A stretch of 64,000 nucleotides of DNA from Candidatus Omnitrophota bacterium. GTDB lineage: Bacteria > Omnitrophota > Gorgyraeia > Zapsychrales > Zapsychraceae. Within the stretch, counting starts at the first letter, position 1, and each line of letters starts with the position of its first letter. Made by a program: the position numbers and the translations under genes. The notes under the pieces were generated by a model that was given only the letters and a program-made list of their open reading frames with translations, did not search any database and was not told the DNA's origin. The stretch lies in NCBI GenBank assembly GCA_029261065.1, contig JAJDCB010000026.1, positions 166,320 to 230,319 of the forward strand, read 5' to 3'. Of this stretch, positions 1 to 53,166 are shown piece after piece.

Positions 1-484
1 ATCAGCGAAGGATGCAGCGATAGCTTTAAAGCCATTAGCTGGTCCGTATGCGAGTATGTTATTTTCCTTCGGATTATTTATCGCCTCCATTTTTGCAGCA
101 TCGATATTACCATTATCGACAGCTTATAGTGTTTGTGAGGGGATGGGGTGGGATGCGGGCATTGATAAGAGATTTGAGGAGGCCCCTGAATTTTTCTGGA
201 TGTATGCTTTTATGATTATTGTTGGGGCTGGAGTCGTTTTGCTTCCTAAATTTCCTCTACTCAGCGTTATGTATTTTTCACAAGTAGGTAATGGGATATT
301 GCTGCCCTTTGTTCTGTTATTAATGCTTGCTCTTATTAATAATAAAGAAATCATGGGTGAGGATTTTGTGAACACCAGATCTCTAAATGTTATAACTTGG
401 ATCGCCGTTGTTGCCATTATTGTGATCACTATCGTTATGGTTGTATTTACATTCATGTATTCTTCGAAAGTAACCGTGATATAA
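1..484 (+). CDS. mntH: NRAMP-family divalent metal (Mn2+/Fe2+) transporter MntH, C-terminal part (gene starts upstream of window)
   Basis: Frame is open from nt 2. PLAG motif near the start. C-terminal tail KEIMGEDFVNTRSLNVITWIAVVAII closely resembles the MntH tail KRLMGEFVNSRLVAIISWIIAVLII. Several TM helices. Confidence 0.75.
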   Translation, partial: SAKDAAIALKPLAGPYASMLFSFGLFIASIFAASILPLSTAYSVCEGMGWDAGIDKRFEEAPEFFWMYAFMIIVGAGVVLLPKFPLLSVMYFSQVGNGILLPFVLLLMLALINNKEIMGEDFVNTRSLNVITWIAVVAIIVITIVMVVFTFMYSSKVTVI

Positions 485-604
485 AGGGGTCAAAAATCTT
501 GACAGGGGCTAGGGGGTGTGTTAAAAAAAATTATTAATAATGAATATGAAAAAAGGCTTTATTATTGAAATTCAATGAAAATTTTTTAATCACATAGAAA
601 ACGT

Positions 605-637
605 CCGGAACCTTATAGATAAGGTTCCTTTTTTTTG
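605..637 (+). terminator. Rho-independent terminator downstream of mntH
   Basis: Stem GGAACCTT / AAGGTTCC with a 6-nt loop, followed by T8. It ends 2 nt before the ATG of the next gene. Confidence 0.6.
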
Positions 638-639
638 TT

Positions 640-1683
640 ATGAAAATAGGTATTACCTACGATTTAAAAGAAGACTGGGGTCATAAACAAGGGGATCCCT
701 TTGATGCGAATGCTGAATTTGATAAGCCAGAAACAGTTGATCGGGTTATCAAGGCGTTTGAGGATGGCGGGCATCGCGTTAAGAGGATCGGCAACGTTTA
801 TCAGTTGTTAAAGAAGATAGATCAACTTGATGTGGATATTGTTTTTAATATGTGTGAAGGTCGCGTTGGACGTAATCGTGAGATGCAGGTTCCTGTATTG
901 CTTGAGATGTTTGATATTCCTTTCGTTGGTGCTGATGCGTTAACCCTTGGGTTGACACTCGATAAAGTTGTTACTAAGAAAATTTTTGTCTCAGAAAATA
1001 TGCCAACGGCCCGTTGTTGTGCGGTAACAGAGAATCAAGATCTTGATGAGGCTTCTTTAAATAAGTTATTGCAAAAGCATCAACTTAATTTTCCTTTGAT
1101 GGTCAAGACATCCTATGAGGGTTCATCAAAGGGTATTACTCAGGATTCACGTGTTGAAGATGGGATAAGTTTGTTGCGACAGATTAAATGGGTTCATGAC
1201 AATTATCATCAAACAGCTTTAGTGGAGGAGTTTATTCGCGGAACAGAATTTACAGTTGCTGTTTTAGGAAATGAGGGTGCCCAAGGCATGCCCGTTTTAC
1301 AGTATGCGATGGATGGAAAGCTAGATTTAGGGGATGAAATATATACAGCGCAACGATTAGCTGATTTGTCCGTGGAATACATTTGTCCGGCGAAGATCTC
1401 TAATGAGCAGGCTCAACAGTTAAAAGATTTGGCGGTTGAAGCGTATCGCGCGGTTGGTTGTCGTGACTTTGGTCGTGTTGATTTTCGTGTCGATGAAAAG
1501 GGAACTCCTTTTATCTTAGAGGTTAATCCTCTTCCGAGTTTGGAGGTTAACGATTGTATTGATTTGTTTCCACCCGTAATAGGTTCGACATTTGAGAAGA
1601 CTATGAATGACATTGTTTCTTTTGCTGTGAAAAGATATCAACAAAAAAGAGAAATGTTTAGTTTAACTGGTACTAAATTATGA
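640..1683 (+). CDS. ATP-grasp enzyme of the D-alanine--D-alanine ligase family (Ddl-like, substrate unknown)
   Basis: N-terminus MKIGITYDLKEDW. C-terminal ATP-grasp motifs GCRDFGRVDFRVDEKGTPFILEVNPLP. Overlaps the downstream aminomutase gene by 4 bp, implying an operon. Confidence 0.6.
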   Translation: MKIGITYDLKEDWGHKQGDPFDANAEFDKPETVDRVIKAFEDGGHRVKRIGNVYQLLKKIDQLDVDIVFNMCEGRVGRNREMQVPVLLEMFDIPFVGADALTLGLTLDKVVTKKIFVSENMPTARCCAVTENQDLDEASLNKLLQKHQLNFPLMVKTSYEGSSKGITQDSRVEDGISLLRQIKWVHDNYHQTALVEEFIRGTEFTVAVLGNEGAQGMPVLQYAMDGKLDLGDEIYTAQRLADLSVEYICPAKISNEQAQQLKDLAVEAYRAVGCRDFGRVDFRVDEKGTPFILEVNPLPSLEVNDCIDLFPPVIGSTFEKTMNDIVSFAVKRYQQKREMFSLTGTKL

Positions 1684-2840
1684 ATCCCCTTGAGTCTCTT
1701 AAAGAAGAAGTCGTTGTTCGTTTGACCCCAAAAGAAAATAGAGTTATTGCTTCTTTTAAAGATGCCACACCTCTTGACTGGGAAGATTGGCGTTGGCAGT
1801 TGCGTAATCGTATTCGATCATTAGATGTTTTAAAAAAAGTTGTTAACCTTACCCTTCAAGAGGAAAAAGGGATTGTTGGTTGTGGGGATAAATTAACAAT
1901 GTCGATCCCACCTTACTTTGCGAGTCTCATGGACGCGGATGATCCAAAATGTCCGATCCGTTTACAAAGCGTTCCGCTTGGTTATGAATTAGAAACATCC
2001 GCTGAGGAGATGAAAGATCCTTGTGGGGAAGATGATCATTCACCCGTACATGGTTTGGTTCATCGTTATCCGGATCGTGTTTTGTTTTTAGTTAATGAAA
2101 TGTGTGCGATGTATTGTCGTTACTGTACGCGTTCGCGAATGGTCGGAGATGGTAAGCGGACGTTAAGTAAAGAAACTTATGAAGCAGCTTTCGATTATAT
2201 TCGATCAAATAAAAAGATTCGCGATGTCCTTATCTCCGGTGGCGATCCTTTAACAATGAGTGATCGGATGTTGGAATACATTATCAGCACATTAAAATCA
2301 ATTCCACATGTTGAGTTTGTTCGCATCGGCACGCGAATTCCTGTAACCCTTCCTCAAAGAATTACGTTTGATTTGGTTAACATGCTTAAAAAATATAGCC
2401 CTATCTGGATGAGCATACATTTTAATCATGCAAAAGAAATCACCAAGCGTGTTAAATTTGCGTGTGATTTATTAGCCGATAGCGGAATTCCATTAGGTAG
2501 TCAGACCGTGTTGCTAAAGGGGATTAATGATAAGCCCTCGATCATGAAGAAGTTGATGCACGAGTTATTAAAGATCCGCGTTCGTCCGTATTACATTTAC
2601 CAATGTGATCCCATTCTAGGATCCAAACATTTTCGCACCCCTGTGTCTGTTGGTATCAACATCATGGAAAAACTTCGCGGCCACACCACAGGCTACGCCG
2701 TTCCCACCTACGTCATCGACGGCCCAGGCGGAGGCGGCAAAATCCCCATCAACCCCAACTACATCATCGCCCGAGATGAAAACAAATACATCCTGCGTAA
2801 TTTTGCCAACCAAGAATTCCACTACGTCGATCCCCAATAA
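1680..2840 (+). CDS. KamA/EpmB-family lysine 2,3-aminomutase-like radical SAM enzyme
   Basis: CxxxCxxC radical SAM motif (CAMYCRYCTRS). PLP-binding-like region. The overall sequence resembles L-lysine 2,3-aminomutase. Confidence 0.7.
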   Translation: MNPLESLKEEVVVRLTPKENRVIASFKDATPLDWEDWRWQLRNRIRSLDVLKKVVNLTLQEEKGIVGCGDKLTMSIPPYFASLMDADDPKCPIRLQSVPLGYELETSAEEMKDPCGEDDHSPVHGLVHRYPDRVLFLVNEMCAMYCRYCTRSRMVGDGKRTLSKETYEAAFDYIRSNKKIRDVLISGGDPLTMSDRMLEYIISTLKSIPHVEFVRIGTRIPVTLPQRITFDLVNMLKKYSPIWMSIHFNHAKEITKRVKFACDLLADSGIPLGSQTVLLKGINDKPSIMKKLMHELLKIRVRPYYIYQCDPILGSKHFRTPVSVGINIMEKLRGHTTGYAVPTYVIDGPGGGGKIPINPNYIIARDENKYILRNFANQEFHYVDPQ

Positions 2841-2906
2841 GCTTTTATTGTTGTGAAGCCTAAAATATTGTCATATGTTATACTTTAATTTTAATTAATC
2901 GTAAGA

Positions 2907-3836
2907 ATGGTAGAGATTATGAGGATTCTTAAAATTTATTTAATACTATTGTGTTTAGTCTTTGTTTATCCAGCGCAAATAAGCCATGCAAAGTCGGTAA
3001 GTCAACGTTTGAAAGAGGATTGGGAGAGACGACAACTGGAAAAGCGAGAGGGATCTAAAAATAGTTCCTCAAAGGATAAAAAAAAGCGTAAATCAAATAA
3101 GTTTAAGAATCCTCTAAAGAAGGAGAAATACAAAAAAGTAGGAAGGTTTAGGCTTTTTGATGACAAGCTCTCTGCCGATGAATTTACTCAGTTTTTAGAG
3201 GGCGTTGAATACATGGATCGATTTTATGCCAAAATGGGAGCATCCGTAAAGCGCTTAAATATGAGAATGTTTACAGATAAAGATCGGTATGACGAATATT
3301 ACAACAAAAATTTCAGGGGGTCTAAAAAACATATAGCGAATGCCTATTATTCGTCAAGAAAAAATGAGATGGTGGTATATAAACATTGGAATTTTATGCG
3401 GAGTTTCTACCATGAATATTCTCATGCTTTTTATCGGGATATCATTCCTAAAGGAGCCCCACGGTGGCTTAATGAGGGCTTGGCTGAATACTTTGAAGGG
3501 ATGAAATTTCATTCGAGAAGCCGTGTTACTATTAGTCCACAGCGAGGAAGATTATTAACTGTTAGAGGATGGAAAGGTCGTTTGCCGAATTATGTTGAAG
3601 ATATCATGACGTTATCCTTCAGGAATTTTAAGGCAAAATATGATGATTCAAATTACAACGCTTATACAATATCTTGGGCCATAGCTTATTTTATTCTAAA
3701 ACAAACCCGTGGGGAGCATATTATGGAAAAGTTTTTAAAGGGAATTGCTAGGGGGCGTACGTCAAAGGAAGCTATTGGTGCTGCATATCCAGGGGGGTAC
3801 TCAAGTTTTATTGAGGATTTCTCAGCATTTTATTAG
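2907..3836 (+). CDS. Secreted putative gluzincin-type zinc metallopeptidase with a lysine-rich N-terminal low-complexity segment
   Basis: Signal peptide. HExxH motif (HEYSH) with a downstream NEGLAEYF third-ligand Glu motif. K-rich stretch KDKKKRKSNKFK. Confidence 0.45.
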   Translation: MVEIMRILKIYLILLCLVFVYPAQISHAKSVSQRLKEDWERRQLEKREGSKNSSSKDKKKRKSNKFKNPLKKEKYKKVGRFRLFDDKLSADEFTQFLEGVEYMDRFYAKMGASVKRLNMRMFTDKDRYDEYYNKNFRGSKKHIANAYYSSRKNEMVVYKHWNFMRSFYHEYSHAFYRDIIPKGAPRWLNEGLAEYFEGMKFHSRSRVTISPQRGRLLTVRGWKGRLPNYVEDIMTLSFRNFKAKYDDSNYNAYTISWAIAYFILKQTRGEHIMEKFLKGIARGRTSKEAIGAAYPGGYSSFIEDFSAFY

Positions 3837-3856
3837 AAGTTATCTATTTAGGGTTT

Positions 3857-3910
3857 ACCTTTGTTTGACAGTAAAGGTTTAATATGGTATCCTTTACTTG
3901 AAAGTAAAGG
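3857..3910. promoter_or_regulatory. Putative vapBC promoter with two operator-like palindromes
   Basis: Consensus TTGACA at 3865-3870. Palindrome ACCTTT-N10-AAAGGT at 3857-3878 and CCTTTAC-N6-GTAAAGG at 3891-3910. RBS GGGAGG lies before the ATG at 3920. Confidence 0.35.
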
Positions 3911-3919
3911 GAGGTCAGA

Positions 3920-4189
3920 ATGGTCACAAAACAAATAAAAATTTCATCAAAAAATCAAATTACAATTCCTCAAACGGTTTTGAAAAAATTAGGTGTTGGA
4001 CCCGGTGATGCTATACAGTTGAATATAGAGGGTCAACATGCAGAAATTCTTGTGGCCAAAAGAAAGCAATTGTCCGCGTTAGATTTAGGAAAAAAGTTTA
4101 AGAGCCACCCTAAAAAGGTTTTGTCTATAAAGCAGATTAATCAGGCTATCGTTGATGGTTATAAAGATTTGGCCGGTAAAAATAGATGA
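3920..4189 (+). CDS. vapB: AbrB/MazE-fold (SpoVT-AbrB) antitoxin VapB
   Basis: N-terminal swapped-hairpin DNA-binding motif (KISSKNQITIPQTVLKKLGVGPGD). 89 aa. Overlaps the PIN gene by 4 bp. Confidence 0.65.
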   Translation: MVTKQIKISSKNQITIPQTVLKKLGVGPGDAIQLNIEGQHAEILVAKRKQLSALDLGKKFKSHPKKVLSIKQINQAIVDGYKDLAGKNR

Positions 4190-4575
4190 AGGTTGCCGTA
4201 GATACGAATATTGTTTTAAGGCTTATTCTCGAAGACAACAAGGATCAGCTGTCAAAAGCTAGAAAAATTGTTAGGGATAATAAGGATGAGGGATCAATTT
4301 TTATCAGCTCGTTGGTTTTCCTTGAAATGTATTTTGTTTTAACCAAACTTCTTGGTTGGGATAAAGCACTCGTTTATCAGGCCTTTGAGGACATCTTATG
4401 TGTAAGAGAATTTAGTTTTGAGAATGAAATAGCCATTAGAATGGCCATATCGGATGTAAGAAAAAATCTTGATTTTAGCGATGCCCTCATTGGTCAGGTT
4501 GGAAACTCGAGAAATTTAAAGACATATACTTTCGATAAGCAATTAAAATCTGATACGGCTTTCATCGTCATATAG
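4186..4575 (+). CDS. vapC: PIN-domain toxin VapC
   Basis: Begins MKVAVDTNIVL, the classic PIN N-terminal acidic motif. 129 aa. Translationally coupled to the upstream antitoxin. Confidence 0.7.
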   Translation: MKVAVDTNIVLRLILEDNKDQLSKARKIVRDNKDEGSIFISSLVFLEMYFVLTKLLGWDKALVYQAFEDILCVREFSFENEIAIRMAISDVRKNLDFSDALIGQVGNSRNLKTYTFDKQLKSDTAFIVI

Positions 4576-4591
4576 GAGCAGTTTTACCAAG

Positions 4592-4636
4592 AACCGATTC
4601 CACTTCCGAAGTGGAATCGGTTTATTTGTTTTTTTC
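4592..4636 (+). terminator. Rho-independent terminator after vapC
   Basis: Perfect ~13-15 bp stem AACCGATTCCACTTC / GAAGTGGAATCGGTT followed by a T-rich run. Confidence 0.65.
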
Positions 4637-4730
4637 TAAATATATAGTACTCTTAACTATAGAGTAAAGTTTGACGCTTGAGGGTCTCTGTGTTAAGATA
4701 TCGCCATTCATTTTTAGGAGGAGGAAAAAT

Positions 4731-5033
4731 ATGAAAAAAATTGAAGCGATTGTACGAGATGAGAAGTTTGATGATATTATCAAGGCTTTGGAAGACTCGG
4801 GAATAGGTGGCATAACTGTAACGGAGGCAATGGGTTTTGGGCGTCATCGTAATGGCTTGAAGAAGAAAATGAAGCTAGAGATTTATTGTGATGAGTTTCA
4901 GGTCGATAAGGTTGTTGAGATGATTCGACGTCACGGCAAGACAGATACCACGGGAGATGGCAAAATTGCCGTTATTCGGCTTGAACAATTGTTCCGCATT
5001 CGTACCGGTGAGCAAGGGGCTAATGCGATTTAG
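4731..5033 (+). CDS. PII (GlnB-like) family signal-transduction protein with a short T-loop
   Basis: MKKIEAIVRDEKFDDIIKALEDSGIGGITVTEAMGFGR closely follows the PII N-terminus. C-terminal IRIRTGE motif. The T-loop segment is shorter than in GlnB/GlnK. RBS AGGAGG, preceded by TTGACG-17-TAAGAT. Confidence 0.6.
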   Translation: MKKIEAIVRDEKFDDIIKALEDSGIGGITVTEAMGFGRHRNGLKKKMKLEIYCDEFQVDKVVEMIRRHGKTDTTGDGKIAVIRLEQLFRIRTGEQGANAI

Positions 5034-5141
5034 GAGTGTTTTTAAGAAAAAGAAATTCGTTTACTTTTTAAGGAACTGTAATATAATAGCTAAATAATTT
5101 TTAAAGAGAAAAATAAAAAGAGAAAAGGCGGTGTTAGTTAG

Positions 5142-5300
5142 ATGATTGAAGTTAAAGTAAATGATCCTCACAACTTCGAAAAAGCTATGAAAATCTTTAA
5201 GAAAGCCTGTCAAAAAGACGGTTTTATGATGGAACTTAAAGACAGGCAATACTATAGCAAACCTTCGGAAAAAAAGAGACATAAGGGTAAGAAACGATAA
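5142..5300 (+). CDS. rpsU: 30S ribosomal protein S21
   Basis: 52-aa ORF MIEVKVNDPHNFEKAMKIFKKACQKDGFMMELKDRQYYSKPSEKKRHKGKKR, which matches the S21 pattern. Absent from the ORF track because it is under 60 aa. Confidence 0.8.
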   Translation: MIEVKVNDPHNFEKAMKIFKKACQKDGFMMELKDRQYYSKPSEKKRHKGKKR

Positions 5301-5422
5301 CCCTTTTTTTGAATACAGAATTTATGGCTTTGTGCCGTGGGTATTTGCTAAGTGCTTTTTAAAAGTGCCAAGCTAGAAGACTCATAGCCCAAAGCCATTT
5401 CCTTTCCCAAATTTTTAACAAT

Positions 5423-6979
5423 ATGATTAAAGTCAAACGTGCACTTATTAGTGTTTCCAATAAGAAAGGGCTTCTCCCTTTCGTGAAAGGCCTTCACGCC
5501 CTTGGTGTAGATATGATCTCTACCGGAGGCACAGCCCGCCTTATTAGAGAAGCAGGCCTTCCTGTAACTGAAGTTTCCGATTACACCGGTTTTCCCGAAA
5601 TGCTTGATGGACGTGTGAAAACCCTACATCCCAAAATCCACGGTGGTCTTCTCGCATTACGAGATAAGATCGAACATATGACACATATCAAAAAGCATGA
5701 GATTGAATTGATTGATATGGTTGTTGTTAATTTGTATCCATTTGAAAGTGTGACTCAAAAGAAAAATGTTAGTTTAGAAGAAGCTATAGAAAACATTGAT
5801 ATTGGTGGGCCTTCCATGTTACGTTCGGCAGCAAAGAATTATAAAAGTGTTGCCGTTGTTTCCAATCCTGTGCGGTACAACGATATTTTAGTTGAACTTG
5901 ATACCAATTCTGGACTAATGTCTGATAGCGTTTTGTACAATCTTGCCGTTGAAGCCTTTGAACACACCGCGCGGTATGATACCATCATCTCTCAATTTTT
6001 GAACCAACGTAAGACAAGCAAAGAATTTGGTCAACTTCCTCAAGAGATGGATTTTCAGTTTGAGAAGATTCAAGATTTGCGTTATGGAGAGAATCCTCAT
6101 CAAGCGGCATCCTTTTATAAATCAGAAGGGAAGGCTTTTGGGTTAGCGAATATTAAACAGCTTCACGGTAAGGAATTGTCGTTTAATAATATTTTAGATT
6201 TGAATGCAGCTGTTGAATTTATCAAAGGTTTCAATGAGCCGGCAGCTGTTGTCATCAAACACAATAACCCGACAGGCGTTGCGATTGATAAAACATTGGC
6301 GCAAGCGTATAAACAAGCTTGGGCGTGTGATAAGATTTCTGCCTTTGGTGGTATTATTGGATTAAACAAAAAAGTAGACGAACAAACAGCTCTCGCGATT
6401 TCCAAAAGTGGTTTTATGGAATGTGTTATTGCTCCAGGCTTTGGGAATGACGCTCTTAAAGTTTTAAAGAAAAAAAAGAATTTGCGGTTGGTTGAGTTAA
6501 AATTGAAGGATTTAAAGCAGCAATCTTATGATCTTAAGAAAGTCATTGGCGGGTTATTGGTTCAGGAATTTGATGCGCGAGATATAAAGTCGGAAGAATT
6601 AAGGATTGCAACGAAGAAAAAGCCTACCAAAGCACAATTAGATTCATTATTGTTTGGTTGGCGCGTTATTAAGAACGTTAAATCTAATGCGATTATCCTC
6701 GTCAAGGGAACGCGAACGGTTGGAATTGGTTGCGGACAAACCTCACGTGTGGAAAGCGTTAATATTGCCATCGATAAAGCAGGTCCTCAAACGAAAGGCT
6801 CTTCTCTTATCTCCGATGCCTTCATCCCCAAAACAGACAATGTGACTCTTGCTGCAAAAGCAGGTATTAAAGCCATCATCCAAACCGGGGGATCGATTGC
6901 CGATGAAGATGTTATTAAGGCGGCCGACAAGGCTGGCATAGCCATGGTTTTAACAGGTGTCAGACATTTCAAACATTAA
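5423..6979 (+). CDS. purH: Bifunctional AICAR transformylase / IMP cyclohydrolase
   Basis: N-terminus MIKVKRALISVSNKKGL (MGS-like domain) and a C-terminal AICARFT domain. 518 aa. Confidence 0.9.
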   Translation: MIKVKRALISVSNKKGLLPFVKGLHALGVDMISTGGTARLIREAGLPVTEVSDYTGFPEMLDGRVKTLHPKIHGGLLALRDKIEHMTHIKKHEIELIDMVVVNLYPFESVTQKKNVSLEEAIENIDIGGPSMLRSAAKNYKSVAVVSNPVRYNDILVELDTNSGLMSDSVLYNLAVEAFEHTARYDTIISQFLNQRKTSKEFGQLPQEMDFQFEKIQDLRYGENPHQAASFYKSEGKAFGLANIKQLHGKELSFNNILDLNAAVEFIKGFNEPAAVVIKHNNPTGVAIDKTLAQAYKQAWACDKISAFGGIIGLNKKVDEQTALAISKSGFMECVIAPGFGNDALKVLKKKKNLRLVELKLKDLKQQSYDLKKVIGGLLVQEFDARDIKSEELRIATKKKPTKAQLDSLLFGWRVIKNVKSNAIILVKGTRTVGIGCGQTSRVESVNIAIDKAGPQTKGSSLISDAFIPKTDNVTLAAKAGIKAIIQTGGSIADEDVIKAADKAGIAMVLTGVRHFKH

Positions 6980-18166: not shown

Positions 18167-19009
18167 ATGTTAAACAAATATCAAATTAAAGGCATGTTTA
18201 AATCCACGTTCCTCCACATCATCCTGATGTCTGTCGCAGCTACGTGTCTGTTTCCTTTATTCTGGATGTTACGTTGTTCTCTCATGACGAATCAGACCGT
18301 ATTTGTAGATAAATCTTTTTTCCCACATGAGTTGCATTTTATGAATTATTTTCAAGCTTGGACAGAAGGTAATTTTGGAATTTATTTCATTAACAGTATT
18401 ATTTACACAACAAGTGTTGTTGTCGGAATTGTTGTTGTATCATCCTTAGCCGCTTATGCATTCTCACGTCTTGAATTCCCTGGAAAAAAGGTGTTCTTTT
18501 ATATGTTTGTCTTAGCAATGATGATTCCTCTACCAGGTAGTTTCGTTGCCCTTTTTGATTTAATGAACATCATCGGACTTGTGAATACGCGAATAGGGTA
18601 TATACTTTGTATGATTAATGTTGGTCTTTCAATGAGCATCCTTTTATTAAAAACATTTTTTGATAAAATGCCCCCGGATCTTGAAGATGCCGCACGGATT
18701 GATGGTTGTGGAAGGCTTCGTATTTGGTGGAATGTTGCTCTTCCTTTAGCAAGACCTGCGTTGGCGGTTATTATTATTTTTAATTCATTGAATGTCTGGA
18801 ACGAATACATTTTAGCGCAGTTGTTACTAAGCGATAAAAATTTAATGCCATTGCAAAGAGGTCTTATGGTTTTTCAAGGATCACATAGTGTTGATTATCC
18901 TTTGTTGATGGCTGGCTTAACGATTGCTGCTATCCCTATTATTGCCGTGTATCTTTTTATGCAAAAACATATTATTAAAGGGTTATCGTCAGGAGCCGTT
19001 GTTGGATGA
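18167..19009 (+). CDS. Sugar ABC transporter permease (MalG/UgpE-like)
   Basis: EAA motif DAARIDGCGRLRIWWNVALP. Start taken at MLNKYQI so the upstream REP hairpin stays intergenic. No ATPase gene in the locus. Confidence 0.75.
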   Translation: MLNKYQIKGMFKSTFLHIILMSVAATCLFPLFWMLRCSLMTNQTVFVDKSFFPHELHFMNYFQAWTEGNFGIYFINSIIYTTSVVVGIVVVSSLAAYAFSRLEFPGKKVFFYMFVLAMMIPLPGSFVALFDLMNIIGLVNTRIGYILCMINVGLSMSILLLKTFFDKMPPDLEDAARIDGCGRLRIWWNVALPLARPALAVIIIFNSLNVWNEYILAQLLLSDKNLMPLQRGLMVFQGSHSVDYPLLMAGLTIAAIPIIAVYLFMQKHIIKGLSSGAVVG

Positions 19010-21459
19010 AAACCAAATTTATTTCAAAGTCCATTTTATATCTGTTGGTAACTCTGCTCGTTACTCATTTTTCAACCCTACCTTTGCAGGCATCCTCAAA
19101 AATAAAAACTTCTGAAACAGTTGTTAGTGAAATAGAAGAACCTCAAACCCCTCAAGAAGTACAAGAACCTCAAGAACAACCAAAAGATTCTAAAGAAATT
19201 AAAGAGAACAAGCTCAGTGAGTTAGCCATTAAGTCTTTATCGCAGCTTACTTCAGAGGAGATTATTCAACAGGCATGGGAATTTTCTAGCAATAATAATT
19301 TAGAAGAATTGGATCGTTTGATTGTGGCTTGTTTAGAATTTTATGGAGAAGATGCCAAGCTACAACATCAAGAATTAACAGATTTTCCTATTCGCACGGA
19401 AGCTAAAAATTATCAATCCTTAAACGATGTAGCGACGTGTCTTTTTATTAAAGCTGAGTCTCAGATGAATAATGGATTAAGAGAAAAAGCCATCGAAGGG
19501 TTTCAACATATTATTGATAATTACAAATGGTCACAGGCTTGGGATCCGAGAGGTTGGTATTGGTCGGTTGCTGAAAAAAGTCAGGCTAGTATCGATGTGT
19601 TGACAGGAAAGAAACAAGAAGAAATAGATCAAGCTGAGGTAAAAATTAATCGCACCAGACCGAGTCTTGTTGAAAAAGGGACAGAAAATATTATTGATTA
19701 TTCGAAATACGGAAAGTTTATTAATGTGGGCACTGAAAAATATCATTACTCTATTACAGATATGCAAGGACTTACGAAAGCGATAGGTGAGGGAATCTAT
19801 CCAAATACAAGCAGCATTTTTAATAATCCCCGTTTTAAGAAGTTAAAGAAGGAAGGACGCTTAGAGGGGAGTCAATGGGACTATGTTAACACTGATGATC
19901 TTGAAGCGGCTTTTTTTAAATGGGCTACAGCTCATGAGCCATGGGGGATTCGTTTGTTTTACATTGGTATGATATTTGAAAAGGCTGAGATGTACTACGA
20001 GGCTTTAAGAGCCTATCACGCTTTAGTTGTTCATTATCCTAAGACAGTTGCTTGGACATATTGGCAGACTCCTTGGTATCCAGGGCAAGTGGCTATTGCC
20101 AAAATTCGCCATATTATTCGTATTCGTCCAGAGTTACACTTGCAAGATAAGTGGATGAAGATTGAGGTGGAAAATGGGTTTGATAATGAAGTGAAAAATG
20201 ATATTTTTATCTCATATCCAGGAAAAATTTTAGAGAAGAGTTTGATGGAAAAAGTTAAAGATAGATTTCTGGATGATAAAGCGTCGTTAGATAAAGTCAA
20301 AAAAGAATTAGGAAAAGGGACTGTACGTTTGGTTCAATATGAAAATGATCACTGGCAGATGTTGGTTAATGATAAACCTTACATTATTAAAGGTGTCACT
20401 TATGCGCCAACAAAGATTGGTCAAAGTCCTGATAAAGGATCGTTAGAAAATTGGATGGAGCAAGATACAGATGATAACGGTCTTATTGATGGGCCTTATG
20501 ATTCTTGGGTTGATAAAAACAGAAATAATAAACGTGATGAAGATGAGGCTGTTGTTGGCGATTTTCAATTGATGAAAGATATGGGTGTTAATACCATACG
20601 TGTTTATCATGTTCCTGATACCCCTAATAAAAAATTGTTAAGAGAAATGTATGAGAAATATGGAATTCGTGTCATTATGGGAGACTTTTTGGGTAAGTAC
20701 GCTATTGGTTCAGGAGCCAAATGGAGCGATGGAACAGATTATGAAAATGAAGAGCATAAGAAGAAGATGTTAGATGCTGTTAAAGGAATGGTTAATGAGT
20801 TTAAGGATGAACCTTATATTTTAATGTGGCTTTTAGGTAATGAAAATAATTATGGCGTTGCTTGTAATGCTGATAAAAAGCCTGAGGCGTATTTTAAATT
20901 TGCTGATGAGGTTGCTCAATGGATCAAATCTGTTGATAAAAATCATCCCGTTGCAATTAGCAATGGTGATACTCTGTTTTTAGACCTTTTTGCGCAAAAT
21001 GCCCCTAATATTGATATTTTTGCAGCCAATGTTTATCGAGGCAATTATGGGTTTGATCCTTTTTGGGAACAAATTCAGGACGCCAGCGGTAAGCCTGCCT
21101 TTATCACAGAATATGGATGCCCTGCCTTTGCAAAACATCTATCGTTAGAGGAGGCCGAAAAAGCTCAAGCCGATTATCATGAAGGTAATTGGCTAGATAT
21201 TGCAAGAAATACAGCAGGTTCGCAAGACGGTGTAGGGAATGCTTTAGGGGGTATTGTTTTTGAATGGATGGATGAATGGTGGAAAAATTATGAACCTTAT
21301 CTGCACGATCGTGCCTCTGATGCCGTCGGACCGTTTCCGGGAGGTTTTTATTATGAAGAATGGTTTGGTATTGTAAGTCAAGGAAATGGTCGAAAAAGCC
21401 CTTTTTTAAGACAATTAAGAAAGGCCTATTTTTCCTATCAAGAGATGTGGAATCAATAA
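19006..21459 (+). CDS. Secreted clan GH-A (GH2/GH5-like TIM-barrel) glycoside hydrolase with an N-terminal GWFWKP-repeat domain
   Basis: Signal peptide. The N-terminal ~170 aa carry one copy of the repeat that also builds ORFs 21617 and 51589 (…AWDPRGWYWSVAEKSQ). C-terminal TIM barrel has acid/base-like LLGNENNYG and nucleophile-like FITEYGCPAF motifs. Confidence 0.55.
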   Translation: MKTKFISKSILYLLVTLLVTHFSTLPLQASSKIKTSETVVSEIEEPQTPQEVQEPQEQPKDSKEIKENKLSELAIKSLSQLTSEEIIQQAWEFSSNNNLEELDRLIVACLEFYGEDAKLQHQELTDFPIRTEAKNYQSLNDVATCLFIKAESQMNNGLREKAIEGFQHIIDNYKWSQAWDPRGWYWSVAEKSQASIDVLTGKKQEEIDQAEVKINRTRPSLVEKGTENIIDYSKYGKFINVGTEKYHYSITDMQGLTKAIGEGIYPNTSSIFNNPRFKKLKKEGRLEGSQWDYVNTDDLEAAFFKWATAHEPWGIRLFYIGMIFEKAEMYYEALRAYHALVVHYPKTVAWTYWQTPWYPGQVAIAKIRHIIRIRPELHLQDKWMKIEVENGFDNEVKNDIFISYPGKILEKSLMEKVKDRFLDDKASLDKVKKELGKGTVRLVQYENDHWQMLVNDKPYIIKGVTYAPTKIGQSPDKGSLENWMEQDTDDNGLIDGPYDSWVDKNRNNKRDEDEAVVGDFQLMKDMGVNTIRVYHVPDTPNKKLLREMYEKYGIRVIMGDFLGKYAIGSGAKWSDGTDYENEEHKKKMLDAVKGMVNEFKDEPYILMWLLGNENNYGVACNADKKPEAYFKFADEVAQWIKSVDKNHPVAISNGDTLFLDLFAQNAPNIDIFAANVYRGNYGFDPFWEQIQDASGKPAFITEYGCPAFAKHLSLEEAEKAQADYHEGNWLDIARNTAGSQDGVGNALGGIVFEWMDEWWKNYEPYLHDRASDAVGPFPGGFYYEEWFGIVSQGNGRKSPFLRQLRKAYFSYQEMWNQ

Positions 21460-21616: not shown

Positions 21617-22489
21617 ATGAAAAAATTGTTGTATCTATTTATCGCATTACTTATTTCAGGGGCTGGATTTGTTAGTCCAAATCAAGTTGAAGCATACAAT
21701 TTCGGAGATTTTCGTTCGGAAACGTTGACAGCAAAAGCATGGGAAGCTTTGGCAGAAGACGATATTGAGGCCGTATTAGCATATACAAATAAGGTTATGG
21801 AACTTTATGGGGCGCAAGCACAACAAATGCAAGAAAGTATTGATGAATTTGTTAGTGGTCCTAAAGAAGACGTCTATGCTTTATGGGCATTAAACGATGT
21901 TTCTACAAGTTTGTTTATCCAAGGGGAAGCCTTTAGAAAAGCTAATATGGTTGACGAAGCCAAAGAAGTTTACAAGAAACTCTTAAACGAATACACGTAT
22001 GGACAATCTTGGGATGATAATGGTTGGTTTTGGAAACCAGCTGAAGCTGCTAAAGAAAAATTGGCAATGCTAGAATCCGGAACGAATTTAGATTTTGGCG
22101 ATTATTCTTCAGCGTATTTGACAGATCAAGCATGGAAGGCCTTAGGTAGCCAAGATCTAGAAGGTGTTGTTATCTATACGGATAAAGTTATGGAACTTTA
22201 TGCGAACCAGGCGCAAGAAATGCAAAATTCTTTGACAGAATATGCTTGGGAATCAAAAGAAAAAATATTTTCTTTGTGGGCTTTAAATGATGTTGGTACA
22301 GCGCTTTTCATCAGAGGTGAAGCGTTTAGGCAAGCAGGAAAGAACAAAGAATCTGCGCAAGCTTATAAAGCTCTCGTTGATAGTTATTATTATGCTCAAT
22401 GTTGGGATCCAGGTGTTAACAATAAAGGTTGGTTCTGGAAACCAGCTGAGGCGGCTCAACAAGCATTGGATGAAATTGGAGAAGTTTAA
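21617..22489 (+). CDS. Secreted protein made of two ~130-aa GWFWKPAEAA repeats (novel domain)
   Basis: Signal peptide. Two internal repeats, each ending ...LWALNDV[SG]T.LFI.GEAFR...Y.Y.Q.WD..GWFWKPAEAA. Confidence 0.5.
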   Translation: MKKLLYLFIALLISGAGFVSPNQVEAYNFGDFRSETLTAKAWEALAEDDIEAVLAYTNKVMELYGAQAQQMQESIDEFVSGPKEDVYALWALNDVSTSLFIQGEAFRKANMVDEAKEVYKKLLNEYTYGQSWDDNGWFWKPAEAAKEKLAMLESGTNLDFGDYSSAYLTDQAWKALGSQDLEGVVIYTDKVMELYANQAQEMQNSLTEYAWESKEKIFSLWALNDVGTALFIRGEAFRQAGKNKESAQAYKALVDSYYYAQCWDPGVNNKGWFWKPAEAAQQALDEIGEV

Positions 22490-51588: not shown

Positions 51589-53166
51589 TTGATTATGCGA
51601 ATAGAAAAGAAAGTCACTAGAGCGTTTTTTTTGATTCTTGTACTCATTGTCTTCTGTCTGGGCTTGACTCATACAACAAAGGCAAATGAGTATGATTTGG
51701 AAAATAACTCTTCAGAAGAACTCACAGCTAAAGCCTGGGCCGCTCTCAAAGAAAGAGACGTTGAAGCTGTGTTAGTTTATACAAATGAATGTATAAATTT
51801 GTATGCCGGTCGTGCTAAGAGAATGCAGGCTGAGTTAGAAAGTTATCCAACGGGTTCTAATGATGACGTTCATCAATATTGGGCTATCAACGATGTAGCC
51901 ACTTCATTATACATTCAGGCGGAGGCTTTTCGTGAAGTGAACATGATGGAGGAAGCCACAGAAGTCTACATTAAAATAATAAACGATTATAGTTTTGGCC
52001 AGACATGGGATCCAAGGGGCTGGTTTTGGAAGCCGGCTGAAGCCGCACAGGATAGGTTAGACGTTATTGAGTCGGGTAAGAATATAGATTTTGGGAATTA
52101 TTCTTCGGAGTTCTTGACGACGCAAGCATGGAATGCCTTAAATACTGGCGATCTTGACTCGGTCGATGACTACGCAGATAAGGTGATTAGCTTATATGCT
52201 GAGAAAGCTAAGGAGATGCAAAATTTTTTGGAAGACTATCCTTTGGGGTCAAATGAGGACATTCATCTTTTTTCAGCGCTCAATGATGTCGGAACTGTTT
52301 ATTTTATTAAAGCGCAAGCGCAAGAGAAAAAAGATGATAAAGATGGGGCTATCTATTATTATAAAAAAATAATTAACAGTTATTCTTACTCCCAGTGTTG
52401 GAATCCAGAAGGCTGGTTTTGGAAGCCGGCTGAAGGCGCGAAGGACAGAATACATATTATTAGGTCGGGTAAGAATATAGATTTCGGGAATTATTCTTCG
52501 GAATTTTTGACAACGCAAGCATGGAAGGCTTTAAATGCTGGAGACTTTGAGTCGGTCAATGACTATGCAGATAAGGTGATTAGTTTATATGCCGATAAAG
52601 CCAAAGAAATGCAAGACGCATTGAGCGGGTATCCCTGGGAGTCAAATGCAATTATTCATTCCCACTGGGCGTTGAATGATGTAGGCACCGTTTATTTTAT
52701 AAAGGGAGAAGCGGAAAGGAAGGCGGGCAACAATAAAAGAGCTATTAACTATTATGAAAAGGTTGTTAGTAATTTTTATTTCTCACAGTGCTGGGATCCA
52801 GAAGATTGGTTTTGGAAGCCGGCTGATGCAGCTCAACAGGCTTTAGATGAACTAGAAGATGAAGCGCAGAAGGCTAAAAAATACGCTCATATGAAAAGTT
52901 CAAAAAGAATCGGTGCTGATACGAAAAATATTACGGATAATAAGTTAGGCGTTGAAGGTGGTTTAGTCGTTTCTAATATGACTTATGGGAGTAAAAGTCC
53001 AATGATTGGAAGTATAGAGAATAGTGAAGTCATTTTTAACAATCAGAGTGAAAGTGAAGATGAAAATAAAGACAGTGTATGGGGAAAACTTTGGTGGAAA
53101 GTTATCATTCCAATATCAATATCGGTGATAGCAGCGGCATTAATTTTAAAATTCGTAAAGAAATAA
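51589..53166 (+). CDS. Secreted, C-terminally membrane-anchored protein made of three GWFWKPAEAA repeats
   Basis: Signal peptide. Three ~135-aa repeats each ending Q.WDP.GWFWKPAE[AG]A. Ser/Asn-rich linker. C-terminal TM helix (VIIPISISVIAAALIL). Confidence 0.5.
   Translation: MIMRIEKKVTRAFFLILVLIVFCLGLTHTTKANEYDLENNSSEELTAKAWAALKERDVEAVLVYTNECINLYAGRAKRMQAELESYPTGSNDDVHQYWAINDVATSLYIQAEAFREVNMMEEATEVYIKIINDYSFGQTWDPRGWFWKPAEAAQDRLDVIESGKNIDFGNYSSEFLTTQAWNALNTGDLDSVDDYADKVISLYAEKAKEMQNFLEDYPLGSNEDIHLFSALNDVGTVYFIKAQAQEKKDDKDGAIYYYKKIINSYSYSQCWNPEGWFWKPAEGAKDRIHIIRSGKNIDFGNYSSEFLTTQAWKALNAGDFESVNDYADKVISLYADKAKEMQDALSGYPWESNAIIHSHWALNDVGTVYFIKGEAERKAGNNKRAINYYEKVVSNFYFSQCWDPEDWFWKPADAAQQALDELEDEAQKAKKYAHMKSSKRIGADTKNITDNKLGVEGGLVVSNMTYGSKSPMIGSIENSEVIFNNQSESEDENKDSVWGKLWWKVIIPISISVIAAALILKFVKK

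Follow-up and report, generated by a model that had tools for sequence, protein, structure and literature searches.

A KamA-linked ATP-grasp ligase gene and a lysine 2,3-aminomutase gene in Omnitrophota as a candidate pathway for beta-lysine ligation

The gene pair and its boundaries

Two genes lie together on the forward strand near the beginning of the window, the whole 64-kb stretch of Omnitrophota DNA analysed here. ORF A (640..1683 in the list of open reading frames) starts with ATG and encodes a protein of 347 aa, a predicted ATP-grasp ligase of the Ddl fold that belongs to a distinct KamA-linked clade, called AG1. ORF B (1680..2840 in the same list) also starts with ATG and encodes a protein of 386 aa, a predicted short-form lysine 2,3-aminomutase of the KamA/AblA type, with radical SAM and PLP chemistry. 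A preliminary description of this DNA had seen here a Ddl-type ATP-grasp gene paired with a KamA-like one, and the Pfam and NCBIfam profiles of both proteins agree with it; both are genuine genes, with homologues in the thousands. The 4-bp overlap that it reported is also present, as bases 1680..1683 of the forward strand, read from the sequence, are ATGA, shared by the stop codon of ORF A and the start codon of ORF B. An overlap of 4 bp is by itself commonplace within operons, and here it is consistent with translational coupling of the two genes.

On the 5' side, the promoter/terminator scan revealed a terminator-like hairpin on the same strand (607..636), GGAACCTTAT-AGA-TAAGGTTCC followed by T8, whose 9-bp stem has 4 G-C pairs and whose end lies 3 nt 5' of the ORF A start codon. 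This hairpin probably serves the upstream Nramp gene as terminator and marks the 5' boundary of the unit, or it could function instead as a leader or attenuator. Positions 1-6000 gave no riboswitch or leader match to an Rfam family at E<=1, and the hairpin is not conserved, since the one found at a related locus (L001) is unrelated and is located ~130 bp upstream. ORF A is the single ATP-grasp gene of the window: a second Ddl-like gene and a second AG paralogue were sought throughout the 64 kb and none was found, and neither mur nor ftsQ is a neighbour of ORF A.

Predicted activities of the two enzymes

ORF B harbors the Pfam domains Radical_SAM and LAM_C, passes the NCBIfam KamA-family model TIGR00238 (361.1 bits, cut-off 199.2) and aligns without gaps to the crystallised lysine 2,3-aminomutase (LAM) of C. 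subterminale, PDB 2A5H, with 489.9 bits and 56% identity. Its best NCBIfam equivalog is the AblA/lysine 2,3-aminomutase model TIGR03820, where it scores 522.9 against a cut-off of 525.4; this shortfall of 2.5 bits is explained by the absence of the C-terminal tail, model positions 5-361 of 417 being matched. The models for glutamate and arginine 2,3-aminomutase give 471 bits (cut-off 650) and 423 bits (cut-off 600), respectively. The CxxxCxxC motif and the PLP lysine (C125/C129/C132 and K337 in LAM) correspond to C142, C146, C149 and K354 of ORF B, and in the alignment to 2A5H residues R134, D293 and D330 are all kept, as R151, D310 and D347. In 2A5H, we take R134 to contact the carboxylate and D293 and D330 to bind the epsilon-ammonium group of lysine, and the roles of the ORF B residues are assigned from these presumed roles together with that alignment. 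ORF B is thus predicted to be a lysine 2,3-aminomutase that converts L-lysine into beta-lysine. The identification as EpmB, which the preliminary description had left open, was rejected, as the TIGR03821 score is 245.7 against a cut-off of 369.3, next to the near-threshold TIGR03820 score and the retention of both aspartates. The window and 176 related loci (1.86 Mb) contain no efp gene.

ORF B lacks the zinc site of LAM, which we take to be an inter-subunit site made of C268 and three C-terminal cysteines: C268 is replaced by K, and the protein stops at the position of LAM residue 369, so that the C-terminal ~47 residues are missing. C268 is likewise absent from all ten ATP-grasp-linked KamA proteins examined. 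In the AG1::KamA fusions described below, the KamA domain has Q at the D293 position, and substrate specificity may therefore differ within the family.

ORF A matches Pfam Dala_Dala_lig_C (4e-31), and its predicted structure is a confident model of the three-domain Ddl-type ATP-grasp fold, whose closest structures appear to be Ddl enzymes at 22-28% identity. The 30 family members compared, ORF A included, share without exception the counterparts of DdlB K97, K144, S150/S151, E180, E187, R255, D257, E270 and N272; of these residues, all except S150/S151 were treated as ATP/Mg2+ and transition-state residues. The residues of DdlB that bind D-Ala, which are presumably H63, K215, Y216, S281 and L282, show a different picture across the 30 aligned members. 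H63 is replaced by an invariant glutamate (E73 in ORF A), conservation is lacking at K215/Y216, where ORF A has L240 and A241, S281 becomes D305, with D in 21 of the 30, and the L282 position is variable. The N-terminal insertion makes the counterpart of DdlB E15 ambiguous, the invariant E26 being the likely one, and the family motif FNxxEGxxGRNRE stands where Ddl has HGRGGEDG. ORF A is therefore predicted to be a catalytically intact ligase with a remodelled substrate pocket.

Whether the ATP-grasp protein might simply be a cell-wall Ddl had also been raised in the preliminary description. ORF A falls below the NCBIfam Ddl subfamily cut-offs (NF002378, 162.7 against 243; TIGR01205, 143 against 245.65) and is more than 200 bits short of all Ddl equivalog models, and these scores, with the replacement of the mapped substrate-site residues, led to the rejection of a bona fide Ddl; by homology it is predicted not to be one. 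It differs from Ddl and VanA in its N-terminal insertion, in having no conserved K215/Y216 loop and in the D in place of S281, and its context is kamA, not cell-wall genes. Some relatives carry extra N-terminal regions of ~200-310 aa, for which a Pfam search gave no match.

Conservation of the pairing

For the family, the species-level genome collection contains 595 relatives, of which the best 80 were examined. At the species level, KamA is located downstream of the ATP-grasp gene or genes, on the same strand, in 73 of 73 informative Omnitrophota loci; 28 of them have the order of the window, a single ATP-grasp gene followed by KamA, and 45 have two AG1 paralogues before it. The commonest junction between ATP-grasp gene and KamA is the -4 overlap, present in 28 of the 71 that could be measured. 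Synteny extends throughout the region in Omnitrophota, with era, yjeF_N and nth on one side of AG1 and KamA, and P-II, rpsU, DJ-1, purH, folC and mnmE on the other. As this synteny is phylum-wide, adjacency within Omnitrophota alone is weak evidence, and the case rests on other clades and on gene fusions.

In a Chloroflexota-type clade the operon KamA-AG1-AG2-GNAT is fixed: of 80 loci, 53 contain it in full, 27 are truncated where the contig stops, and none contradicts it. The four-gene operon is found, for example, at locus L094 of CP070642.1. An HDAC-type gene occurs in 10 of these 80 loci, and clustering of their neighbours revealed nothing else recurrent besides the four cassette genes. 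The GNAT of this operon has weak rimI-type matches (37-49 bits, cut-off 86.4) and matches no AblB model. In Omnitrophota, a GNAT homologue was found neither in the window nor in 87 loci (tblastn, E<=1e-3), and the AG2-type ligase is absent from the Omnitrophota loci and from the window, so that the product there may differ from that of the four-gene operon.

Other arrangements are also found. At two loci (L091 and L093) KamA adjoins 2-3 ATP-grasp domains, three of them at L091, which is flanked by an amino-acid permease gene, and of 270 proteins retrieved for the family, 40 are tandem double ATP-grasps. No KamA lies within 8 kb of a tandem relative at L092; this gene overlaps by 4 bp one of the Peptidase_S58 family, which we take to include the DmpA/BapA beta-aminopeptidases. 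AG1::KamA fusions from NCBI, Logan, ENA and JGI fall into 10 clusters of proteins (47-100% identity), and the reverse order, KamA::AG1, occurs at L176, where it is followed by an AG2::GNAT fusion. L176 is flanked by Na+/H+ exchangers. Upstream of the L088 fusion there is a 306-aa protein without a Pfam match, unrelated to the LPG_synthase_C protein at L090, and the basic 40-aa ORF 3' of the L088 fusion is probably spurious; the fusions thus have no consistent third partner.

The pairing of KamA with ATP-grasp genes is not a matter of chance: the genome-neighbourhood survey found it strictly kept in two separate clades, with fusions in both orders. The family comprises 584 representative clusters at E<=1e-30, with 590 relatives in the metagenome scan, and spans at least Omnitrophota and Chloroflexota, almost wholly uncultured phyla. 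Literature searches did not find a paper on the KamA/ATP-grasp pairing, and with the linkage this widespread the suggestion that it represents an uncharacterised small pathway holds. The pathway is real, widespread, uncharacterised and assembled from known enzyme types.

Proposed pathway and alternative explanations

The model that we consider probable is that the two-gene operon makes beta-lysine and then ligates it into a small amide or peptide. With a [4Fe-4S] cluster, SAM and PLP, ORF B would make beta-lysine (3,6-diaminohexanoate) from L-lysine by shifting the alpha-amino group to C3. ORF A would phosphorylate a carboxylate with ATP, and the resulting acyl-phosphate would be coupled to an amine, which would give a small amide or peptide that contains beta-lysine, either as beta-lysyl-X or as X-beta-lysine. 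In this scheme we infer that beta-lysine is the substrate of the ATP-grasp enzyme, and the same holds for the way the ligation runs, for the second substrate and for the role in the cell. The ATP-dependent ligation of beta-lysine put forward in the preliminary description is supported by the linkage, the fusions and the non-Ddl substrate-site residues, and what we infer beyond this is the type of product, be it a dipeptide, an amide or an oligomer. ORF A and ORF B represent the minimal form of a cassette present in several phyla, whose fuller forms may add a second ATP-grasp, a GNAT and an HDAC-type deacetylase, and these probably make N-acetylated beta-lysine peptides. By analogy, the most plausible physiological role is that of a lysine-derived cytoplasmic solute, either a compatible solute or a nitrogen-rich metabolite. 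As for genomic context, the hints of an osmolyte role are solely the exchangers at L176 and the permease at L091.

Several known systems resemble this scheme in part. The AblA/AblB pair, which makes N-epsilon-acetyl-beta-lysine in methanogens and some bacteria (kamA-yodP in B. subtilis), has the same type of lysine 2,3-aminomutase, and in both cases the enzyme of the neighbouring gene derivatises beta-lysine or would do so; the fuller cassettes of other phyla also carry a GNAT and sometimes a deacetylase. However, the partner of ORF B is an ATP-grasp ligase and not an acetyltransferase, the cassette GNAT is not AblB-like, and the KamA of ORF B has neither the zinc site nor the C-terminal tail. 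The AblA/AblB operon was rejected as the identity of the pair, there being no adjoining AblB-type GNAT. In the EpmB/EpmA system, a KamA-family enzyme also provides beta-lysine, and an ATP-dependent ligation to an amine follows, whereas ORF A is an ATP-grasp protein instead of a lysyl-tRNA-synthetase paralogue, ORF B is under the EpmB cut-off and efp is not near any of the 176 loci. The radical SAM enzyme PylB acts on lysine and, with the ATP-dependent PylC, condenses two lysines (PMC8225853). The likeness lies in a radical SAM lysine isomerase whose rearranged product is joined to an amine by an ATP-grasp enzyme; ORF A and ORF B themselves were not found to be a PylC-type ATP-grasp and a PylB-type radical SAM protein. 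A single protein, Ngg, N-acetylates and also forms the peptide bond of the dipeptide osmolyte N-acetylglutaminylglutamine amide, NAGGN (PMC8070244). This system, Ngg/AsnO, would be similar in forming the peptide bond with neither ribosomes nor NRPS and in yielding, with N-acetylation, a small cytoplasmic solute, and the AG2::GNAT fusion at L176 has a comparable two-activity architecture, as a functional analogy only. NAGGN synthesis differs in using glutamine and not a beta-amino acid, in having no radical SAM step and in requiring an amidotransferase, which is absent here, and the two-gene version of the window has no acetyltransferase.

The ATP-grasp enzymes might instead be iterative, linking beta-lysine units, with or without a partner, into an oligomeric or polymeric beta-peptide that would be cationic or would store nitrogen, in analogy to cyanophycin synthesis. 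The tandem double ATP-grasps, the three domains beside KamA at L091 and the two AG1 paralogues of most Omnitrophota would be in line with this, the Peptidase_S58 overlap at L092 would suit the turnover of a beta-peptide, and in the Omnitrophota loci examined the gene next after KamA encodes the nitrogen-signalling protein P-II. We nevertheless regard it as rather unlikely, because the window has one ATP-grasp, the Ddl enzymes that are its closest structural relatives make dipeptides, the S58 link is a single locus without KamA, the P-II adjacency belongs to the phylum-wide synteny, and the GNAT and deacetylase of the fuller cassettes better fit a small capped molecule. A broader version, unlikely though a little easier to entertain, is that AG1 proteins are NRPS-independent beta-peptide synthetases making cationic peptides of the oligo- or poly-beta-lysine type, with the GNAT as capping enzyme and HDAC- or S58-type hydrolases as trimming enzymes where present. 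If true, it would define a new class of bacterial beta-peptides, serving as nitrogen reserve, polycation or osmolyte in thousands of uncultured bacteria of at least two phyla. Ligation of beta-lysine to a protein is quite improbable, whether the ATP-grasp enzyme took over the role of EpmA on EF-P or added tails to a ribosomal or carrier protein in the manner of RimK/LysX. To our knowledge, EF-P beta-lysylation by EpmB/EpmA is the sole established housekeeping use of bacterial KamA-family enzymes, and the position of the Omnitrophota pair among translation-related genes (era, rpsU, mnmE), the 595 relatives in the species-level collection (the best 80 having been examined) and the weakly RimI-like GNAT point the same way. 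On the other hand, ORF B resembles AblA/LAM and not EpmB, no efp lies in the 176 loci or the window, no conserved gene for a small carrier or target accompanies the cassette, the nearest structures are Ddl enzymes acting on small molecules, and the rimI matches are far under their cut-off.

The remaining two explanations concern the identity of the enzymes themselves. It is very improbable that the aminomutase yields a different beta-amino acid, or that the ligase uses alpha-lysine or an unrelated compound. The 2.5 bits missing on the AblA model, the scores on the glutamate and arginine models and the Q at the D293 position of the fused KamA domains leave some room for it, as does a ligase substrate that cannot be read from sequence, but ORF B keeps both aspartates for the epsilon-ammonium group of lysine and is 56% identical to an authentic LAM, its AblA shortfall is accounted for by the missing tail, and the glutamate and arginine cut-offs are missed by much wider margins. 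That ORF A is an ordinary cell-wall D-Ala-D-Ala ligase, with no functional meaning in the adjacency of kamA, is hardly credible. Its fold is that of Ddl, Ddl comes out on top in Pfam, NCBIfam and PDB, many relatives are named 'D-alanine-D-alanine ligase' by JGI, and the window holds no second Ddl-like gene. Against this stand the curated cut-offs missed by far, the replaced substrate-site residues, the lack of mur or ftsQ neighbours, the strict KamA linkage in two clades with fusions in both orders, and the abundance of the family in records named Dehalococcoidia; the cultured members of this class, as far as we know, have no peptidoglycan.

The formation of a small beta-lysine amide or peptide is the favoured reading. 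The fates of beta-lysine known to us are few, namely N-epsilon-acetyl-beta-lysine, the modification of EF-P, lysine fermentation and a small number of antibiotics, and the KamA/ATP-grasp cassette would add another one. Being compact and partly fused, the cassette is directly testable by heterologous expression. The family is also subject to systematic misannotation: its members are automatically named 'D-alanine--D-alanine ligase', and the tandem ATP-grasp forms reach the NCBIfam Ddl subfamily cut-off only because two domains are summed, so that inferences about the cell wall of uncultured lineages can be misled by this name.

The gene pair and its predicted enzymes

ORF A, the ATP-grasp gene (window 640..1683; 347 aa; Pfam Dala_Dala_lig_C, 4e-31), and ORF B, the KamA-family gene (1680..2840; 386 aa; Pfam Radical_SAM and LAM_C), lie on the same strand and overlap in the ATGA at 1680-1683; the ORF listing and the sequence as read agree with the preliminary description on this overlap and its coordinates. 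Both are real genes. A sequence identical to ORF A is present at NCBI, and the nearest relatives of ORF A bear the names Candidatus Omnitrophica or Omnitrophota. A strong terminator-like hairpin followed by T8 (607-636) ends 3 nt 5' of the ORF A start codon, ahead of which no Shine-Dalgarno sequence is visible; the hairpin region has no match in Rfam, and at the equivalent position of the related locus L001 a different hairpin lies ~130 bp upstream.

The top NCBIfam model for ORF B is TIGR03820 (lysine 2,3-aminomutase AblA), on which its 522.9 bits fall short of the 525.4 required; the protein covers no more than positions 5-361 of the 417 in the model, and the C-terminus that it lacks accounts for the difference. 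The protein exceeds the KamA-family cut-off (361 vs 199 bits), and falls clearly below that of EpmB (245.7 vs 369.3) and clearly under those of the glutamate and arginine aminomutases. It aligns without gaps to the lysine 2,3-aminomutase (LAM) of Clostridium subterminale (PDB 2A5H; 489.9 bits, 56% identity), and retains C125/C129/C132, R134, D293, D330 and K337 of LAM, of which D293 and D330 hold the epsilon-ammonium group of lysine and K337 binds PLP. The zinc ligand C268 is replaced by K and the protein stops at LAM residue 369, and therefore ORF B is without the inter-subunit zinc site and the C-terminal domain, both of which are absent in 10/10 ATP-grasp-linked KamA proteins aligned. By sequence, ORF B belongs with the lysine 2,3-aminomutases and not with EpmB.

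The AlphaFold model of ORF A is confident (pLDDT 93.7), and adding E. coli DdlB to an alignment of 30 family members allowed residues to be mapped between them. Those serving ATP, Mg2+ and the acyl-phosphate (K97, K144, S150/151, E180, E187, R255, D257, E270 and N272) are invariant. On the substrate side the residues differ: DdlB H63 is replaced by a Glu (E73) that is invariant across the family, K215 and Y216 are unconserved, S281 is Asp (D305) in 21/30 members and L282 is variable. The family also has an invariant motif of its own, FNxxEGxxGRNRE, and an N-terminal insertion. ORF A scores below the cut-offs of both NCBIfam Ddl subfamily models (162.7 vs 243, and 143 vs 245.65), and no second Ddl-like gene is found elsewhere in the window; no member of the family has a solved structure or a specific NCBIfam model. 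ORF A thus appears to have the fold and chemistry of a Ddl, yet not to be a Ddl. The two counter-readings named in the preliminary description, grouping of the aminomutase with EpmB and a bona fide cell-wall Ddl, are both disfavoured, the former on the model scores, AblA being the best, and the latter on the cut-offs and the changed substrate-side residues.

A syntenic locus in Omnitrophota

A scan with one genome per species returned 595 relatives, the best 80 of which are all Omnitrophota-type MAGs, some deposited as 'uncultured Planctomycetales' and one as Margulisiibacteriota. In 73 of these 80 loci a KamA gene comes after the ATP-grasp gene on the same strand; the remaining 7 end <1 kb past the ATP-grasp gene and are uninformative. 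The layout of the window, ATP-grasp then KamA, occurs in 28 loci, and 45 carry between the two a second ATP-grasp paralogue ~35% identical to the first; the commonest junction with KamA is the 4-bp overlap seen in the window (28/71 measurable junctions). Both paralogues belong to AG1, the KamA-linked clade that includes ORF A; AG2, the second ATP-grasp type of fuller cassettes, and the GNAT are absent from the Omnitrophota loci. Adjacency within this phylum alone proves little, because the whole region is syntenic across it: era, yjeF_N and nth, then the ATP-grasp and KamA genes, then P-II, rpsU, DJ-1, purH, folC, mnmE and cvpA.

In the window, three genes (2907-4575) separate KamA from the P-II gene (about 4731-5033): a DUF1570/HExxH-like protein (2907-3836) and, as assigned from reading the sequence, an AbrB/SpoVT-type antitoxin-like ORF (3920-4189) with a 4-bp overlap to a PIN/VapC-like ORF (4186-4575). 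P-II directly follows KamA in L001, L004 and L006/L007, and the stretch resembles an insertion, specific to this lineage and carrying a toxin-antitoxin pair, in the phylum-wide block. Elsewhere in the window, two secreted proteins (21617-22489 and 51589-53166) share, in their translations, repeat modules of ~130 aa ending '...WFWKPAEAAQ...', a motif also present at 19006-21459; they look like an expanded repeat family adjoining a sugar ABC-transporter/glycosidase cluster.

Cassettes and fusions beyond Omnitrophota

The pairing recurs well outside this block, as the neighbourhood survey envisaged in the preliminary description reveals: besides the Omnitrophota loci, gene order is invariant in a second clade and fusions occur in both orders. 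An exhaustive representative search gave 584 clusters at E<=1e-30; phylum names in the records are those of the Omnitrophota and Chloroflexota clades only. One remote clade of single-domain proteins, with 38% identity to ORF A, is that of Chloroflexota/Dehalococcoidia, where one complete 1.76-Mb genome carries KamA, AG1, AG2 and GNAT as an overlapping operon, an order invariant across 80 metagenomic loci (53 complete, 27 cut by contig ends). A histone-deacetylase-family protein directly follows GNAT in 10/80 of them (in L167, 8535-10277, 581 aa; histone-deacetylase/acetylpolyamine-amidohydrolase, PF00850, 2.4e-75), which suggests that acetylation of the product is reversible.

Rosetta-stone fusions are of two kinds. 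AG1::KamA is no assembly artefact, as 10 clusters (47-100% identity) spread over four data sources contain it; locus L176 has the reverse fusion, KamA::AG1, followed by AG2::GNAT. This twice-fused cassette (L176 4684-7507) is flanked by two genes for Na+/H+ exchangers, one of which carries a TrkA_N domain, a weak hint of a salt-related role. In 3/3 AG1::KamA fusions examined (P0190, P0275, P0280) the D293 position is Gln and D330 is retained, and this sub-clade may have an altered substrate specificity. In L090 (2700-5808) the next gene, 5 bp after such a fusion, encodes LPG_synthase_C as a protein on its own (PF09924, 1e-36), the aminoacyl-transferase domain known from MprF, raising the possibility that in this lineage a lysine-like group is passed to a lipid or other acceptor. 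L093 combines two ATP-grasps, GNAT and KamA, and in L091 KamA is accompanied by three ATP-grasp domains, two of them in tandem, adjoining an amino-acid permease.

Product of the cassette and competing readings

Comparison of these loci shows that selection has kept a lysine 2,3-aminomutase and an acyl-phosphate-forming ligase, both functional-looking, side by side in independent lineages, and that the two are repeatedly fused. The enzymes are of known superfamilies and their chemistry has precedents in AblAB, Ngg, PylBC and EpmAB; no description of the KamA/ATP-grasp cassette was found in the published literature. In the proposed model, beta-lysine made by ORF B would be the substrate of ORF A, which would join it to a second molecule by an amide bond. 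AG1 probably takes beta-lysine directly, because it is always adjacent or fused to KamA, and the conserved extra acidic residues E73 and D305 might suit a cationic substrate. In fuller cassettes, a second ligation and N-acetylation would come next. From the pairing itself and by analogy, the favoured product is a small beta-lysine-containing peptide solute: the osmolyte N-epsilon-acetyl-beta-lysine offers a parallel acetylation of beta-lysine, Ngg, one enzyme that supplies both the acetylation and the peptide bond in the osmolyte NAGGN, resembles the proposed ligation and N-acetylation (PMC8070244), and PylB/PylC likewise place an ATP-grasp enzyme after a radical SAM lysine isomerase (PMC8225853).

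A less likely reading, an iterative oligomer or polymer synthetase, is suggested by the tandem double ATP-grasps (40/270 fetched proteins), by loci with several ATP-grasps and by a single Peptidase_S58 neighbour. The latter gene has a 4-bp overlap with that of a 675-aa tandem ATP-grasp relative (L092 8001-11116), within 8 kb of which there is no KamA; the S58 family contains DmpA/BapA-type aminopeptidases, and its presence hints that the ligase products may be beta-peptides, later recycled. Protein beta-lysylation is disfavoured, as the aminomutase is AblA-like and not EpmB-like, efp is absent from 1.86 Mb of related loci, and no conserved target gene was found around the cassette; conservation of the lysine-binding residues likewise disfavours another amino acid as substrate. 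The cut-offs, the altered active site and the fusions contradict the view of ORF A as an ordinary Ddl with an unrelated kamA next to it, as does the abundance of the family in Dehalococcoidia-named records.

Many family members carry the automatic name 'D-alanine-D-alanine ligase' (JGI), and the tandem proteins P0123, P0124, P0126 and P0130 exceed the NCBIfam Ddl subfamily cut-off (305-324 bits) only through summing of their two domains. This naming is probably a systematic misannotation, one that affects cell-wall inferences for uncultured phyla, and the cassette itself would represent an uncharacterised multi-phylum route from beta-lysine.
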